A stretch of 64,000 bases of DNA from Macrostomum lignano (GCA_002269645.1 NIVC01000236.1:62001-126000), one strand, 5' to 3'; counted from the stretch's first letter, positions 2,417 through 31,239 are shown. The notes: generated by a model from the sequence alone, not told the origin. Numbers and translations are program-made.

Positions 2417-5400
2417 ATGGAGAAAGTCACCTATAGAGTAGTGGAGGAGTGCATTAGCCGCCTGAATGAGATCTATCATCAGCATCCGCATGAGCCGGAG
2501 GTTGCTCTGTTCTGCCCAGATGCGGCCAGCCTGCGTCACCGATTGAAGTCCACGCTATTGAAGATTATCTTTCTGACGCCGGCTGATTTCGGCGCCAAAG
2601 GCGAAGACATTCTATGGCGCAAAGGCTTCTACGAGGTGTTGGCTTGCATTAAAAAGTACCGCCAGTCCAACAGGCTCTCGGGGCAGGTTGAGGCCCTGTA
2701 CCGGGCGCATCTGATCAGCGGGCTGGGCTTCTACAATCAGCTGCTCTCCCGGGTGCTGCTGGAGTATCCGGTGGCAGCTGGCGACGCTGCCGGCCTCGCC
2801 GAGGTGGCCGCTGTTGGTTGCGCCGATTTTGCGCCGGCGCCGAAGCTTCTACTTAGCGCCGACCCGACTACCGATGCTGGCGCCAACGCTGCCACCGCGG
2901 ACTGGGCGCGCGGCGCCGTGCACAGGTGCCTGATGCACATCGGGGATCTGTACAGATATCTGCGCGAGTTTCAAGGCGAAGTGGCGCTGGCGCTTGTTCA
3001 GCGCTATTACGGCGCTGCTGCCAGATTTGAGCCCATGATTGGCCTGCCGTACAATCAGCTGGGCACATTGGATGTTGGCAACTACTACAACCTCACTGCC
3101 GTGTATTATTATCTCAGGTGCGCTGCTGCTTGTTAAAACTTTACTTCTAGGGAGGACGAACACAGCTGAAATTTGGATGATTCCACAACTAATATGCACA
3201 CCGATAATCGCATTCGAAATCCTTTCTACTTATTTTGTTCCTGCAGATGCCTGGCCTGCGAGCAGCCGTTCGAAGGCTCCAGACGCAACCTGGCCAAAAT
3301 TTTAAACAAAAATCAGCGCCGATTCGAATCCCTGCCACCGTTGGACTCCGCGGCGGCAGCTGCCGGTTCTGCCGAAGCCGGCCGGCCGCACAAGCCCGTG
3401 AAGCAGTTCGCTGTGCGGTTTGTTTATCTGATTGGCCGCCTGCTGCAGCCTCACCAGCTGATGCAGCATCAGCGGCGTCAAAACTACCGTCAGCTTGACG
3501 CCGAGCTGAACGCGCTGTGCCAGTCAGTCCTTGCCGGCCTCTCAGTCTGCCTGTCCGACTGCGGCGATGGCGACGAAGCCGCATGCCTGGCCGTGCGCGC
3601 CTCCGAGGTCGACCCGATGCGGCCGCACCGCCTGGCCGACTCTGCTGTGCTGCAGGCCGCGCTGGCCGCCGTCCTCTGCCTGGACTCGCTGGCGGCCGCC
3701 AACTCCCGGCATGCGCACGCCTGCACCGCCTTCTGCCTAGGCCTGTTTGCCTGCGTGCTGCGCTGCGCCCTGTCCAGGTGCCGGCACGCGCTGCAGACCG
3801 TGGCGACTGCGACACCCACGGCTGAGCTTGACGCTGGGGAGCCGACCGCTGATGGCAGCGATGTTGACGGAGACGATGCAGCTGCAGAAGAGGTCGAAGG
3901 CGGCGGGGAGGACGAAGACGAAGACTATGCTGCCGGCGATTTTCACGGCTTCTCCGCTCCGAGGCTGCGTCGACGACGTCGAAGGAGGCGACGACGGCGC
4001 GGCTCTGGCAGTGGCGACGATGCTTCTTCGTCATCGGGCGAGTCCAGCGACTGTCAGTTGGCGTTCGGTTACGACGAGGATGACGAGGAGATTGAAGGCG
4101 AGGATGGAGAAGCTGGAAGGGAAGGGGAGGACAGCAACGCCGAAGATGAGGCCGCAATGGCTGCGGCCGAGCCAACGTCGACCAGCGTCGGCGGCGGCCT
4201 GCCGTCGTTTTGCTTCAGCTACGGCATTCCATCAGCGTTGATGTTTCACGACGAAGAGAACGACGATAAGTCGGAGGCTGCAGAGTTGGGTCAGGATGGC
4301 CCGCCTGCTGATGCAGAAAATTCCAACGCAAACGTCTCGACTGTTTGTGAGGCGGATGCGCAAAAGGACGATTCCACTGCGGCCGCTGCCGAGGCCGTTG
4401 AATCGGCAATTAGTCGGGTTCGCCTGCTGCAGACAGTCAAACTGCTGCTAGACTGGATGCTGTGCCAGCCTCATCTCCTCAGCCGAGCAGTGCAGGTGAG
4501 CTTTGAGCTTGGCTTTTTGCCAAAACGCAGACAAAGGGTGTTGCCAAAGGGTTTCCAAAAAATCGTCATACTACTTCCAGCATTGCATATCAGCAGTCAA
4601 AGTTACTCCGGCCTTTCACCCAAACTTCCACAGTCTTCCTGCCTGCCGCTGTGGGACAGCCTGTCAGCTCTGCTCAACCTGCTGCCCGCTCCGCCTGGTG
4701 AGGACAGCGGCGTCATCTGCCCGGAGCCGGAGCGCTCGGCGGCCCTGCCGGAGGACGCGCACGCCCGCGGCCTCCGCCTGTTCCGGCCGGTACAACGCCA
4801 CCTGGACTTCGCCGCCGCCGGCCAGGCTGCCCGTCTGGATGAGTCGCGCCTGCGCCTGGCCGCCATCCGCCGGTTCGGCTTCCTGGCTGTGCAGAATGAC
4901 CAGCTGGCGTTCGAGTTCGACTCGGCTGCTGGCCACTTTCTGGGGCCAACGGCTGTCGCACAGGCCAGCAGGGATGCCCAGATGCGGAATCTGGCCCAGC
5001 TGCGCCTCATCAATCAGGTGCAGCAGTTGGAGTCCGCCGTGTCTCAGGCGACGCCAGCCATCACTGTGAGCTCCTCAAATGCCAATTTTCAATCAACTGC
5101 AAGTTCGTCAGTCGGCTCGCTTACATTACTAACAGTAGCCAACCCAACATTTTCGCTCCACAGTCGTCGCACGCCATTCCGTCGCGTCGGTGCCTCACAG
5201 ACGGCCTCGACCGGCTGAAAGCCCTGGTCAGCAGTCGGCGCTGCATCCTGGTGCTGCCGCGCAGCTCTATCGACTATCTGGACAGGCTGAAGCAGACCAG
5301 CCAGGCTGCCAGGCGCGCCAGCCGTTTCCTAGAAACCGAGCTCCAGTCGGGCCGCGGCCTTATCAACACGCACGATTATCCATCCTTGACTGCCTGCGCC

Positions 5401-24720: not shown

Positions 24721-25240
24721 CCTAACCCCTCCCAGGCTAACCCTCCTACTCTACCCCTCCCAGCTACGCTCTCTAGGCTACCCCTCCCAGGCTACCCCTG
24801 CCATTGTACCCCTCCTAGGCATCCCTCCCAGACAGCCCCTCAGGCTCCCCTCCTACTTTACCCCTCAGGCTCCCCTCTTACTTTACCCCTCCCAGGCAGC
24901 CCTTCCAGGCTACTCCTCCCAGGCTACCCCTTCCATGGCAACCACTTCCAGGCTATCTCCCACTGTACCCCTGTGTACTGTCTCTATTTATGTTCGAAAC
25001 TGAGAAGATTGTTTCGTTTCGGTATTATTTAAAAAGATAATGCATCATTTTTTACTTCAGACGCTTCACTCTCATCATTTCAGGTGCGTACATGCGAGTC
25101 AGCTAACGCTGACGCCGCACTTTGTATTCGGCTTTCCAACGGGGAACTGTGCGTTTATGAAAGCCATTTGGGATTTGGGATGCCAGAAAAGATATTCTAT
25201 TTTGCAAGGATCCGATAAAAGCTGCCGCTTCGGCTGCACT

Positions 25241-25438
25241 GCAGTGACCGCCGGCTCAAGCGGAGACGATCGCAGGACTGTTTGCTGCCTGCCGCTTGCT
25301 GCAGTGACCGCCGGCTCAAGCGGAGACGATCGCAGGACTGTTTGCTGCCTGCCGCTTGCTGCAGTGACCACCGGCTCAAGCGGAGACGATCGCAGGACTG
25401 TTTGCTGCCTGCCGCTTGCTGCAGTGACCGCCGGCTCG
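25241..25438. repeat. 60-bp tandem repeat, about 3.3 copies, left arm
   Basis: Unit gcagtgaccgccggctcaagcggagacgatcgcaggactgtttgctgcctgccgcttgct starts at 25241, 25301, 25361 and 25421 (partial). Confidence 0.95.
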
Positions 25439-25995
25439 CTGCTTCGCGTGCTGTCATCTACGAGTGTTGCGAGTGCTAAGGGCGAACGAAGGACTAATTA
25501 AGGAGCATATTATCCGATTTCCTTCAGAGGAGATCTTTGGCATTTATTTATCTTCGCGTGGAATTAGCAGTGAGTAAAAAAATATGTGTATTTTATGCTG
25601 CCGCTTATACACTCTACAATATCATCAGCAGAATACGAAAAATGAGGTCGTTTAAAACAAAATAGTACGTAGATTTTCTGCACGTTACGCGTATTTAGCT
25701 TCTTCCTAGTGAAATCAGTGAATTGTTTTGGTCGCGTACATAACCTATTCAGCTTCTCCGCTCATAGTCACTCCAGCATCAAGTGCTAACAATGCAAATT
25801 AGCTATGAACTGTATTGGAATACTTTGCATCATGCATTTGCATTTTAAATAAAAGGACTTTTTCTCTCGTTCATTGGCAGGTGTCGAGATGAGACTAAGC
25901 AATGTGCATTATGCTGCTGCCGATGCACAGGACGCAGAGTGCAATCAGGATCCTCGTGAGGTGAAAGAAGACGACAGTGACGACTACGGCATGTA

Positions 25996-26095
25996 GGTCG
26001 GGAGGTTCCGCCTCCCGGAGCGCGCTCGCGCGCTTCCCATGGCTGCCGCCTTCACGCGGCGGGACCGTCCGGGTTCGCCCGGCCAAGTGCAGCCA
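25996..26095 (+). ncRNA. Candidate HDV-like (CPEB3-type) self-cleaving ribozyme at the LINE 5' end
   Basis: P2 TGGCTGC (26040-46) / GCAGCCA (26089-95); P3 GCC/GGC around L3 TTCACGC; P1 3' strand GGGACC then GT; P4 CCGGG-TTCG-CCCGG; J4/2 CCAA. P1 5' GGTC starts at the first base after the TSD. Confidence 0.7.
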
Positions 26096-29000
26096 CCACC
26101 CCGGACCCGTGCGAGGGTCTTCGAGCGCCCCGGGTTTTTCCACGCTGAGCCAGGCCTCCCAGCTCACCTGGCTCAGCTGCTTCTCAGAGCTGGAGACGTC
26201 GAGTCCAACCCTGGGCCGGCCTTCCCGTGCGGAGGCTGTGCCGAGGAGGTAGCCAGGGGCTACTCCACCTGCTGCTCCGACTGCGGCCTGTGGTGGCACC
26301 GCCGTTGTTCCCGCCTCACTATTGCGGCTATCAACCGGCTCCACCGGGACAAGGCACCGTGGCACTGTCCCACCTGCGCCCACCAGCCTGCCGCTTCAGC
26401 GCCGCAGCCCGCTGCGACTCCGGCCCCTCCGCGGCTGCAGGCCCCACTGGCACCCACCAGACGCCAACGGCTACGACTCCACCTCCCCCGAACCCCGCAC
26501 CGGCACCCCCGCCCTCCCTGATGGCGCAACCAGCGCGGGCGGGGGCGCCGAACAACAGCGGGGCGGCTTTCCGCATCGTCCAGCTCAACGCGGCAGGGCT
26601 CCGCTCCCGCAAGCTGGAACTGCTCCACTTCCTGGAGAAGCAGGGCGCCGACGTCGCCTGCATCCAGGAGACGAACCTGTCCGGCAACACAGCGGCCCCA
26701 CGCCTCAAAGGGTGGCAGATCGCTGGCCGGAAGGACCGCAACATCGGCCGCGACGGGGAGGCAGCCAGAACCCACCACGGGGGCGTCTGCTTCCTTGTCA
26801 AGGAGGGCATTCAATTCGCCGACCTTCCACTAGGCGAGCTCGTCACCCACGCCACGTCCGCCGAAGCCTCGGGCCTCCGTATCCACGACCCCCGGCTACC
26901 ACGTCCCCTGGATGTGATCAACATCTACCTCCCGCCGGTCCGCGCCGCAGACGGCCGCACGGACGCCTTCGAGCCCGACTGGATCCCCGTTTCACGGGAC
27001 TCGTTGGTGCTGGGCGACTTCAACGCCCACCACGGGATGTGGGACGCCTCGGCGGACGACGACGAGCTGGGCAGGGCCCTCGAAGACTGGGCGACGACCT
27101 ACGACCTGGTCGCTCTGAACGACGGCTCCCCAACTAGGATCAGCCCCCGCGGCCTGCCGAGCTCCCCTGACGTCTCCTTCGCCCACGCCTCCTGGCAAGA
27201 CCGGATCGAGTGGCGAACCGGGGAGCACATCGGCTCAGACCACCTGCCGATCATCATCGACATCGCAGCCTCCGGCCCGGCCCGCTCCAGCTCCAAGCGC
27301 CTGACGCGGTACGCCTACCACAAGGCGGACTGGGACCTGTTCCAGCGGACCCTCGACCAGGCCCTGGCCAGCTGGCCGGAGCGCCCCCCACGCACGGTGC
27401 CCGTCGCCGCCAACCGGTTCGCGTCCGCCGTCACCAGCGCCGCCAAGGCGGCCATCCCGAGAGGCTGCCGGCGCGCCCCGATCGCCTGGTGGTGCCCGGA
27501 AGCCGAGGCGGCCTGCACCGCCCGCCGCGCGGCGCTCGAAGCGCTTCGCGCGAGCCCGGACGACCCGGCGCTCTCGGCCGCGTACCAGGCTGCTGCCGCC
27601 GCGGCTGCTCACGCCATCTGCCGCGCCAAGGAGTCGCTGTGGCGTGATTTCATCACTGACCCGGGTCACGACCTGTGTTCCGCCGACCTCTGGCGGATCA
27701 TCCGGGCCCTCGACGGACGGTCCCAGGGCACCCCCTCGTCGGCTGCCATCCAGGGCTCCACGGGGGCACCGGCCGTCTCCGACAAACAGAAGGCCGCGCT
27801 TTTCTGCCGGGAGTACGCCGCCGTCAGCAGGCTCCCCAAGAACAAGGCGGAAGACCGGCCGGTCATCCAAGAAGCCCGTCACACGCTCCGCGCCCCCTGC
27901 AGCTGCCAAGGCCTCCGCAGCGGCCCCTGCTCCGACTTCCAGCCCGACGCCCTCCGCCGCGCCTTGGTGCGCCTGCCGGACCGCTCGGCCCCGGGACCGG
28001 ACGGGGTCGCGAACATCATGCTGAAGCATCTGTCCGACCTGGGGCTCCGCTGCCTCCTGGACCTCCTGAACCTCTCGTGGAGGACGGGGGAGGTGCCCGC
28101 CCCGTGGCGCCTTGCGGAGATCCGCCCGATCCCCAAATCGGACAAGCCAGCCGGCCTGACATCCAGCTTCCGCCCTATCAGCCTCCTCAGCTGCCTGGGC
28201 AAGCTCGCGGAGAAGATGGTGAACGAGCGGCTGTCCTACATCCTCGAGGCAAATGACGCTCTCCACCCGTCGCAAGCCGGTTTCCGTCAGGGCCGCTCCA
28301 CGGAGGAGCACATCGCCGCGGCGGCCCAGTACATTTTCGACGGTTTCCAGGCCAAGAAGCCGGCAGCCCGCACCGCTCTGCTCCTTGCAGACTTCTCCAG
28401 AGCCTACGACCGCGTCTGGAGAGCCGCCCTCATCGTCAAGCTCGGTCGGAAGGGGATCCCCACGTGCCTCATCCGCTGGCTCAAGGGATTTCTCTCCGAC
28501 AGGAGGGCCTTCGTGCGGTGGGTCAGTGCGGCCTGCAAGCCAACCGTGTTCTCCGAGGGGCTGCCGCAGGGGTCGGTCCTCGCCCCGATCCTGTGGGTGA
28601 TCTACATGGACGACCTCCTGGACGGCGCCCCCACGAACTGCCTCACGCTGGCGTACGCCGACGACAGCACCTTCGGCGCGCAAGGGACCACCCCTCGGGA
28701 GTGTGAGCGGGCCCTGCAACCGGCGGCCGACTGGCTCGTGCGCTGGTCCCAAACCTGGAAGGTGGACCTGAGCCGCACCAAGTCGGTCGTCGCTTTCTTC
28801 TCGCTCGACCCCCGGGAGGTCAACGGAAAGGTCCAGCCGCGCATCCTCCTCGGCGACTCGCCAGCTCCGTTCGAGCTGCATCCGAGGCTCCTGGGAGTGC
28901 ACCTCGACTCCCAGCTGACCTTCCGCCACCACGCCGAGCTCCGGCGCCGCGCCCTCCAGCAGCGCACCGGCGTCCTACGCTGCCTCGCGGGCCGCGACTG

Positions 29001-30418
29001 GGGCCAGGACGGCCAGCGCCTCGTCCAGCTCTACCGCACCTACGCGGAGGCGGCCGCGCTCCACGGCGCCTCCACGTGGCTCACCTTCGCGTCCGACTCC
29101 TGCCGGGACGAAGTCGAGATTGCGCACCGATCGGCCGCCCGCGTCATCACTGGCTGCTGCCGCTCGACCGCCATTGGCCCCCTCATGGCTGAGGCCGACC
29201 TCGTGCCCCTGGCGACCAGAGCGGAGGCGGCAGGCGCAGCCCTGTTCGAGCGAGCCCTCCGTCACCGACAACCGACTCCGCTCCGCGCTGCAGCGGGCAA
29301 GACCTCTACGCCCCGCTTGCGCGCTCACGGGGAGCCTGGGGCCTTCCGTAGGAACTGGCGCGACTCGGCGCAGCACCTGAGCGCCGCCGCCGGCCTGGCC
29401 ACCCTCCCCCGGGAGCAGGAAAACCTCCCTCCGCCGCCATGGTCCGACACCAGCCGGGTCACCATCCGCTGCGACCTCCTGACCGCGACCTCCGAGAGGA
29501 GGCGCCCCACGTCAGAAAGCTGGCCGCGCTGGAGACGCTGGCGAGCCTCCCGCCCGCCGACCTGGAGCTCTGGACAGACGGTTCAGCCTCCGGGGCACCC
29601 TCAACGGCGGAGCGGGGGCGGTCATCTTCAGCAAGACCGCGCCGCCAGTCCACCTGTCGCAGGCTGCGGGCCGTCACTCTTCCTCCTTCCGTGCCGAGGA
29701 GTCGGCTCTCCGGCTGGGGCTTCAGCACGTCGCCTCCAGGCCGGACCTTGCCTCCCTGAGCGGCCTCCGCTGCCTGACGGACTCGCAGTCCCTGCTCCGA
29801 GCCCTCGAGAAGGGACCGTCCAAGTCCTCCTCGCCAGCGTGCCGGGAGATCTGGACGCTGCTGACCCACGTCGCCGCCCGCTTCCCAATCTGGCTGCAAT
29901 GGGTCCCCAGCCACTGCGACCTCCGGCGGAACGATGCTGCGGACGTCACCGCCAAGACCGCGGCCGGCCTCCCCCAGAACGAGACGCCGATCGACTTCGG
30001 GTCAGCGCGGGCCGCCCTCCGCCGGGTCCTCGCCGAGCGCACCCGCGAAGCCAACGCGGCCGACCCGCACTGCGCCACCCACCGTCTGGCAACCGCCATC
30101 GCCGCCCCGCGGCCACGCCTTAACCGGGCCGACGCGGTGACCCTCGCCCAGCTGCGCACGGGCCACTCACCGCTCCTGCGCTGGTATCGGCACCGGATCG
30201 GCCTGGACACCGCCGCCACCTGCCCCCGCTGCGGGGCCGCCGACGAAGACGTGGCCCACGTCCTCCTGCACTGCCGGGCCCTTGACGACCTTCGGGCCCG
30301 CACCCTAGGGCGAAACCCGTCCCTGGCCGTCCTCTCGACGGACGGCCTCCGCGCGCTCGATTTCCTCCGCACGGTAGGGGCGCAGACACGCCCCCCGGAT
30401 CCAACCGGCCGGGAGTAA
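26039..30418 (+). CDS. LINE polyprotein (about 1460 aa if continuous), split in this sequence by three -1 frame changes (between about 26400-26520, about 29490 and about 29590)
   Basis: One frame carries 2A/PHD (26039-26521), the next APE-RT, the next the ...LELWTDGSA segment, and the original frame resumes for the rest of RNase H and CCHC to TAA 30416-30418. Confidence 0.8.
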
Positions 30419-31239
30419 CAACAACAACAACTACGGCATGTATGACTATTCAGCCACATTGCACAGAAATTAGCTGTTAGCCGTATAAATATGTTTAGTC
30501 ACACTTCTCTGTGCCCGTGGCGTATACAACATTTAATCCATGACCTCTGCAATATTGCACTACCATCAAATGCTGACGCTCTCTCTCCCACTCTGTAATG
30601 CTGTGATCAGTTTTGTCCTCCCTGTCGAGTTTTGCTAACCAAACTTTGAGAGAACTAAGCAGCGCGTTTTTCGACAAGCGTTGGCTGTTTATATTTTTTC
30701 ATTGTCTTTTGTCAATGTACAGTTTTACGAGTGTATACTTGACTGTATATTATGAAGATGTGCCTCTAAAATAAAACAGACTTAATTGCTTTTACCTATG
30801 CTTTTTACGATAATTCACTCTGTCCTGTCCTGAAACATTCCTGTTTTATCGAATTCTCTTTTGATGATGACACAAATATGGTCACATGACGGTCACAAAG
30901 AATAGTGGGAGGTAGAGCCATAGGGCGAGATGTATAAAGTATATGAATTTACATTACAGTAGTCTCAATGGTTTGCCTGCCCCTCTTGGCCTCCCTTTCT
31001 CCTTCTCGCCCTCTGTCGCTGCAGCACCTGTTGGTTAAAAATGAGAGGAAAGCTCGGCGAGAAAAGCCTCTGTGTAAAAGTCTCGTGCTCCCATAGCGTG
31101 ACATCCTGTCACTTTTTAAATAGCCATGACTTTCCTGGTACATGGACACTTACATATGTAAGTTGTTTCCATCCGATTAAGACAAATGATCTATAATTAG
31201 TATAGGTGGATATTAGTAGAAATAAATTCAGTCAGTCTT

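Follow-up and report, generated by a model that had tools for sequence, protein, structure and literature searches.

What does a 2A ribosome-skipping motif do directly ahead of a PHD finger at the start of a LINE, and where does translation of such an element begin? Both questions are raised by a 64,000-nucleotide stretch of the Macrostomum lignano genome (GCA_002269645.1 NIVC01000236.1:62001-126000; the window), in which an original prediction had placed a 2A motif releasing a 59-residue leader and a PHD finger that might read chromatin marks to guide integration. The answer that we favor, with moderate confidence, is an Ingi-type LINE with a single ORF, in which a 5′ ribozyme frees the RNA and the 2A discards a variable leader to leave a Pro-PHD start. 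It builds on the domain order, the exact 5′ end and the target-site duplication, on the occurrence of 2A and PHD over 23 families, on compensatory pairing in the predicted ribozyme and on the lack of a conserved AUG.

Structure of the element

The element lies on the plus strand between two identical target-site duplications and has the following features, with positions counted from the first nucleotide of the window:

25983..25995, + strand: left target-site duplication, 13 bp, identical to the 13 bases at 30430-30442
25996..30429, + strand: full-length Ingi-type non-LTR retrotransposon of family F1, 4.4 kb, its copies sharing the start base
26039..26041, + strand: in-frame AUG of the 59-aa leader, spanning J1/2 and the two leading bases of the predicted ribozyme's P2
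26159..26218, + strand: 2A-like tract PAHLAQLLLRAGDVESNPG/P, core at 26195-26218, predicted skip between G59 (26213-26215) and P60 (26216-26218)
26228..26377, + strand: C4HC3 PHD finger (C64, C67, C79, C82, H87, C90, W108, C110, C113)
26378..26571, + strand: Pro/Ala/Thr-rich linker, with a C run near 26423 one base short in the window copy
26572..27255, + strand: APE endonuclease domain (PF03372, E 1.2e-10; PF14529, E 6.7e-16)
27952..28900, + strand: reverse transcriptase (RT) domain (PF00078, E 1.9e-31)
29600..29965, + strand: RNase H domain (PF00075, E 1.5e-5, 25.6 bits against a cut-off of 25.8)
30191..30280, + strand: C-terminal CCHC-type zinc knuckle (PF13966, E 1.3e-3; seen in the translation)
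30416..30429, + strand: stop codon directly abutting the (AAC)n tail (sequence and copy comparison)
30430..30442, + strand: right target-site duplication, 13 bp, identical to the left one

A 5′ query of the genome recovers 12 F1 copies at 97-100% identity, all with the same first base. These are 98.3-99.9% identical across their full length and, judged from shared flanks, represent nine separate insertions. With a threshold of at least 97%, the 5′ query gives 13 copies, one of them cut by a contig end, and the 3′ query gives 15, so the 5′ end is retained in most F1 copies. The element starts 199 nt upstream of the 2A aspartate and has no ORF1. As judged from these copies, F1 is a recently mobile, full-length LINE with a single ORF.

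The window copy is interrupted. Its 2A-PHD frame stops at TGA 26519-26521, with APE and RT in another frame, and the RNase H frame differs as well, one base being missing near 29491 and another near 29591. The base absent near 26423 is present in 9 of 11 sister copies and in the family contigs of all four sequencing runs, and the bases near 29491 and 29591 are likewise present in the family contigs (4/4 runs each); the runs are presumed to be RNA and were seen as contigs, where coverage is not equivalent to transcription, RNA ends or locus-specific gaps. Since sister copies and run contigs carry the base near 26423, F1 is a single-ORF family, and what creates the TGA/ATG overlap at 26519-26523 is the missing base. 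The predicted placement of 2A and PHD at the start of the LINE ORF holds in sister copies, which read through; in the window copy the TGA separates both from APE. As assembled, the window copy is unable to make the joined PHD-APE-RT-RNase H protein. Its three one-base gaps may be mutations or assembly errors, and many copies are gapped; with one-base gaps so frequent in the assembly, frame calls are weak for single-copy families. The sole F1 copy of the 12 with an unbroken frame (L039, G000:C556) stays open for 1407 residues between the 2A Asp and the tail, and its 2A core is changed from NPGP to NLGP.

The TGATG overlap could in principle be functional, with the 160-residue 2A-PHD frame forming a separate ORF1 and a stop-restart leading into ORF2, as in SART1. 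Two other copies (L032 and L035) have the same gap near 26423, as such an arrangement would allow. However, it is largely refuted by most sister copies and every run, where the base is present and PHD and APE share one frame, and other families read through; we rejected this explanation as scarcely credible.

Related families and published elements

Searching the genome with a 76-residue 2A-PHD query gives 114 matches. Among the 80 match stretches examined, 68 contain a 2A core by our own pattern, followed by APE and RT in nearly all and by RNase H in most. We defined 24 families and counted 23, leaving out the degenerate F10. Because the families were recruited by the 2A-PHD query, their conservation of 2A and PHD is partly selected. 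In other genomes, a 2A-like core occurs in 49 of the best 150 proteins from a PHD profile, mostly a few residues before the finger. A looser core pattern is matched by eight of 91 APE-RT homologs, which were mostly unnamed proteins and included no named Ingi. On these matches, the 2A-PHD pairing is widespread. One divergent 2A-PHD-APE-RT family, F24 (L128, L131, L135), has no RNase H match and a (CA)n tail, and is possibly Vingi-like.

The F1 element likely belongs to the Ingi clade, on the basis of its architecture and a by-eye comparison of the RT. It has the clade's single long ORF, APE-RT-RNase H order and N-terminal 2A, and 81 of 157 RT residues, counted by eye, are identical to those of Ingi-1_AC (PMC3708506, supplement). 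RNase H distinguishes Ingi from Vingi (PMC13708176, in part). The single ORF, N-terminal 2A and APE-RT-RNase H are shared with Ingi-1_AC from Aplysia and with L1Tc and ingi from trypanosomes, and the clade also has in common with F1 a 5′ HDV-like ribozyme, predicted in F1, with a one-pair P1.1, short deleted partners and duplications of ~12 bp (PMC3708506, PMC3185411 and PMC4035085, each in part).

There are also differences. In L1Tc and Ingi the 2A directly precedes APE (PMC3708506), whereas here a PHD lies between them, and unlike known Ingi-clade LINEs the element has a P1 split by two hairpins and an AUG that is unconserved. The order 2A, PHD, APE at the start of a long ORF is found in Crack-17_BF, CR1-1/17/26_BF and the sea urchin elements STR-24/25/34/35_SP, with none listed for Ingi in the portion of PMC3708506 available. 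Those elements are CR1/Crack-type, whereas F1 has RNase H, an Ingi-like RT and a predicted ribozyme. The available portion of PMC3894237 holds nothing further on the PHD. The 2A-PHD layout is already published in kind, and the Ingi context, the unconserved AUG and the split P1 are variant features.

The 2A motif

The frame from 26039 (translated to 26521) reads M1...LAQLLLRAGDVESNPG/P60, with the tract LAQLLLRAG-DVESNPG/P60. The pattern GD[VI]ExNPGP occurs once in the six frames of the window, against ~1e-5 expected from base composition, and the predicted core at 26195-26218 is real, with a match to GD(V/I)ExNPG/P. NPGP is kept in 11 of 12 F1 copies, the 20 codons of the tract differ between F1 and F2 by nine synonymous and four replacement changes, and 20 of the 23 representatives of the families have a canonical 2A. 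Conservation among copies, which had been named as a test of the motif, therefore speaks in its favor. Active 2As are reported from Rex1, L2, CR1 and Ingi elements, and that of Ingi-1_AC is >97% active in skipping, with the reservation that the motif by itself is insufficient (PMC3708506, in part). In F1 a canonical 2A precedes a true PHD fold, and skipping would yield the Pro-PHD start that had been predicted.

The 2A could instead be mainly an attenuator that stalls ribosomes and lowers RT and endonuclease output, the fixed N terminus being a by-product, as proposed in the available part of PMC3708506. Leu-rich 2As, with at least three Leu at -19 to -10, often coincide with a lower protein yield, and a reduction class takes in 59% of the ORF2p 2As (PMC13405545, in part); the 2A here has four Leu in this interval, three of them at -13 to -11. 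Yet seven to eight of the 23 families have 0-1 Leu (including F13-F17, F21 and F23; F3 and F22 have two) and keep the NPGP core, and the PHD begins 0-10 residues past the skip site in 17 aligned families, which points to selection on the N terminus of the product. We consider attenuation improbable as the main role; it is nevertheless compatible with a 2A that discards a variable leader.

The tract varies in some families. In F16 (L093, L099) and F17 (L098, L107) the 2A has Trp at -15, described as the hallmark of class B 2As and said to be rare in eukaryotes (PMC13405545, in part); both families also carry at least two Cys-rich fingers, and the stretch ahead of APE is longer. F14 and F15 (L116, L118, L119, L121) have 2A-like cores without Gly before the Asp and with no Leu at -19 to -10, and their frames are long, with 1398 residues open downstream in L118, L119 and L121.

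The PHD finger and target sites

The predicted C4HC3 PHD right after the 2A is borne out by its ligands, the Trp before the last ligand pair and the predicted fold. It matches PF00628 at E 1.3e-4 and 22.4 bits (cut-off 24 bits), 14 of 17 related fingers match the same profile at E 0.1, and its own profile matches are Alfin-like and Pygo PHDs. The AlphaFold model (pLDDT 90.7) superposes on the Pygo PHD 2vpg with a TM of 0.83, and the nearest solved folds are H3K4me readers.

Readers of H3K4me3 possess an aromatic cage of two to four residues with an invariant Trp, often together with an acidic Arg2 pocket, and readers of H3K4me0 have an acidic cluster N-terminal to Cys1 (PMC3241642, in part). 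The C4HC3 fold is common to the LINE PHDs and the histone-reading PHDs of Pygo, Alfin-like, TAF3 and BPTF, but these reader features are unconserved in 17 basic LINE PHDs. The window PHD keeps a Trp two before the His; where Alfin-like PHDs have their second cage residue, it carries Ser. Across the 17 aligned families, window included, the Trp is found in five and the second position is aromatic in two, never in combination, and none has an acidic residue after Cys3. The cage and Arg2-pocket positions are those that we take to be equivalent from the Alfin-like profile alignment and from what is known of the fold. P-A-F-P precedes Cys1 in the window, and only one of the 17 families has an acidic run there. 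Thus, a cage with an acidic Arg2 pocket does not extend across the 17 families, and the acidic cluster before Cys1 is absent from the window PHD. The net charge is +2 to +8 in all 17, which alone is indecisive because the Alfin-like reader is near neutral in the profile alignment.

The proposal that the PHD reads chromatin marks is unsupported in that reader residues are not conserved over the 17 families. Histone reading is possible; we infer that the basic PHD binds a nucleic acid or protein partner in the retrotransposon particle, not the methylated H3 tail. LINE PHDs have been proposed to help genome targeting in PMC4120745, the available part of which states that there is no functional study. 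Among the families here, (CAA)n/(CAG)n microsatellites host 16 of 23 (F7-F23; L091-L138 and others) and do not host F1-F6 or F24, and the F1 duplications all begin with AC, as does the tail. On the insertion sites compared, target choice goes by DNA sequence and lineage.

A predicted 5′-terminal HDV-like ribozyme

The first 100 nucleotides of the element fold, by descriptor parse, into a predicted HDV-like ribozyme with these parts:

25996..26095, + strand: predicted HDV-like ribozyme (descriptor parse, P1.1 check and covariation in a related lineage)
25996-25997, + strand: P1a
25998-26034, + strand: two inserted hairpins
26035-26038, + strand: P1b
26040-26046/26089-26095, + strand: P2
26048-26050/26058-26060, + strand: P3, 3 bp
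26051-26057, + strand: L3
26061-26066, + strand: P1′
G26067, + strand: P1.1 (separate P1.1 check)
26069-26082, + strand: P4
C26083, + strand: putative catalytic cytosine (J4/2)

It has the features of HDV-like ribozymes, namely P2, a 3-bp P3, a penultimate G in L3, P1.1, P4 and the J4/2 cytosine. The descriptor comprises P1-P4, L3 and the J4/2 cytosine and was tuned on the same sequences with hand-set P1 lengths; with it, 19 of 26 representatives parse at a score of 8-15 and seven do not, whereas of 130 control windows only three can be parsed, with scores no higher than 6 (0/130 reach 8). The predicted +1 coincides exactly with the duplication-defined 5′ end in five of ten testable cases and falls within 1 nt in three and 4 nt inside in two, both of the latter having a bulged P1. 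P1.1, which lies outside the descriptor, pairs in 19/19 as C-G, U-A or A-U, with P1 length hand-set.

Covariation points the same way. In ten F7-F12 sequences, which are related and from one of which the structure was derived, 95.7% of cells pair against 40-51% in slid controls, both partners have changed in 15 of the 33 pairs, and the covariation score is reached by 0 of 500 shuffles. Pairs were counted on these ten alone, as MAFFT, applied to 16 ribozyme cores, placed four rows and the 3′ halves wrongly. An Rfam scan of 25800-26700 gave four chance-level matches and no ribozyme, and the fold of 25996-26100 is not unusually stable (z -1.33 over 105 nt), a single-strand measure that is uninformative for a pseudoknot.

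L1Tc RNA also starts with an HDV-like ribozyme (PMC3185411, PMC4035085, both in part), and for R2 and L1Tc the ribozyme reportedly supports translation that is independent of a cap (PMC6765202, PMC13725137, both in part). Four short F1 copies (L014-L017; G000:C10, C587, C32, C1113) join the first 137-142 nt to the last 100-115 nt; they keep the ribozyme, the 3′ end and (AAC)n and have their own target duplications, with the 2A and PHD gone. Partners of the NARTc/RIME type are internally deleted in the same way. In F24, the 5′ fold as judged by eye includes an additional hairpin, which separates P3 from P1′.

A predicted P1 helix split by two hairpins

The P1 of F1 is 6 bp in total from +1, not the continuous 6-7-bp P1 of HDV-like ribozymes. 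Two flush hairpins break its 5′ strand in nine of the 19 parsed representatives (F1-F3, F8/F9/F12 and F16/F17), and the split is also visible in the alignment for F7 and F11. The helix is divided into 2+4 bp in F1-F3, 3+4 in F7-F12 and 2+5 in F16-F17, and is continuous in F5, F13, F15, F18 and F23. In an RT tree of copies from this genome alone, the three split groups are separate branches, each next to families with a continuous P1. Within F7-F12, 10 of 13 counted hairpin pairs change on both sides, whereas P1a and P1b are invariant; among the groups P1a and P1b differ yet remain paired. The F1-F3 ribozyme alignment was excluded from the pair counts.

Extra domains are known in J1/2 or P4, with P1 continuous at 6-7 bp, and drz-Agam-2-1 and the R2 ribozymes share with F1 the double-pseudoknot core and extra helices near the 5′ end (PMC4908430, PMC3774820, both in part). 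They differ in that the element studied here has its two hairpins within the 5′ strand of P1, and its J1/2 stays at 1-4 nt. A literature search that stopped short of the main papers on the subject found no interrupted P1; the predicted four-way-junction P1, present in three lineages with compensatory changes, may be new. If a split-P1 ribozyme does cleave, the HDV fold would be widened, and there would be a reason why standard models such as Rfam miss ribozymes of this kind.

The start codon and the leader

The predicted leader, M1 to G59, is indeed 59 residues long, but as a defined product it is unsupported: its AUG falls within the predicted ribozyme, and the two nearest sister families have no in-frame AUG to match it. 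The AUG at 26039, with G at +4, is in frame in 12/12 F1 copies, against 0/5 copies of F2 and 0/2 of F3. In four of the five F2 copies AAC takes its place and all frames ahead of the 2A lack an ATG, and two of these four have an in-frame TGA 39 codons up; the remaining F2 copy and F3 have an ATG there that is out of frame. No ATG in any frame precedes the 2A in F8 (3/3 copies). Over the 23 families, an in-frame AUG lies past the ribozyme with 22 or more codons between it and the 2A Asp in six, inside the ribozyme in eight and solely in the 2A tract in five, with none in four; the ribozyme ends of seven families were placed by eye for this classification.

By hand counts, and with families that are not independent, in-frame ATGs are enriched upstream of the 2A (24/39, p 3e-4), also outside the 2A tract (16/27, p 0.005). 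AUG starts are therefore probable in many families and possible in F1. Conservation extends to the 2A tract and its short distance to the first PHD Cys; the leader and its start are unconserved.

These data bear on an explanation in which translation starts at AUG 26039, the 2A releases a functional 59-residue leader and the PHD directs integration by recognizing histone marks. The constancy of the AUG within F1 and the enrichment of in-frame ATGs are in line with it, as are the resemblance of the PHD to H3K4me readers, the retained Trp two before the His and the published targeting proposal (PMC4120745, in part), though the 12 copies that share the AUG are 98-100% alike. On the other hand, that AUG is within the predicted ribozyme and out of frame or absent in F2 and F3, leaders vary in length and sequence apart from the 2A tract, reader residues are unconserved, the PHDs are basic in 17/17 and target sites track DNA sequence and lineage, most families sitting in CAA/CAG repeats. 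We regard this explanation as unlikely.

Flatworm spliced leaders end in AUG, and leaders devoid of one could acquire both cap and AUG by spliced-leader trans-splicing, the 5′ fold then being a promoter or packaging signal. However, contigs of the four runs, which cannot show absence, have no loose end resembling a spliced leader inside the leader, L1Tc transcripts are translated without trans-splicing (PMC3185411, in part), and the catalytic core positions are kept. This explanation is very improbable.

Proposed mechanism

The reading that we prefer, a ribozyme that frees the RNA and a 2A that sheds the leader, would proceed as follows. By cleaving at the first base of the element, the predicted HDV-like ribozyme would release its RNA. 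Ribosomes may then enter the uncapped RNA cap-independently, by analogy with the R2 and L1Tc ribozymes (PMC6765202, in part). With the AUG buried in the predicted ribozyme, 2A skipping likely provides the enzyme with a single constant N terminus, Pro-PHD, irrespective of where ribosomes initiated, and would shed the variable leader, probably at the cost of some downstream protein (PMC13405545, in part).

More tentatively, the four-way-junction-P1 ribozyme could be active in three lineages that differ in where P1 is split. Together with the 2A it could form one module, in which ribosomes enter the uncapped RNA with no need of a fixed AUG and the 2A redefines where the protein begins. Such a module would explain why LINEs keep a 2A before a leader without conserved function. 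A literature search for the combination of ribozyme, non-AUG start and 2A gave unrelated papers only. The 23 families share ribozyme, 2A and PHD and vary in the AUG, which may lie past the ribozyme, within it or not close to it at all. They form a natural series that makes testable both the purpose of the LINE 2A and the start of translation on ribozyme-cut, uncapped LINE RNA.

Surroundings of the insertion

The target of the insertion (25880-25995 and 30430-30600) is a multi-copy host sequence. The empty-site join is present as loose ends in contigs of 4/4 runs, which means either a polymorphic insertion or a repeated flank. Upstream of the element, 25238-25420 is a tandem 60-bp repeat of about three copies, and at 2417-5218 the window contains an EST1/SMG5-7-like host gene across two adjacent frames (PF10374, PF10373).
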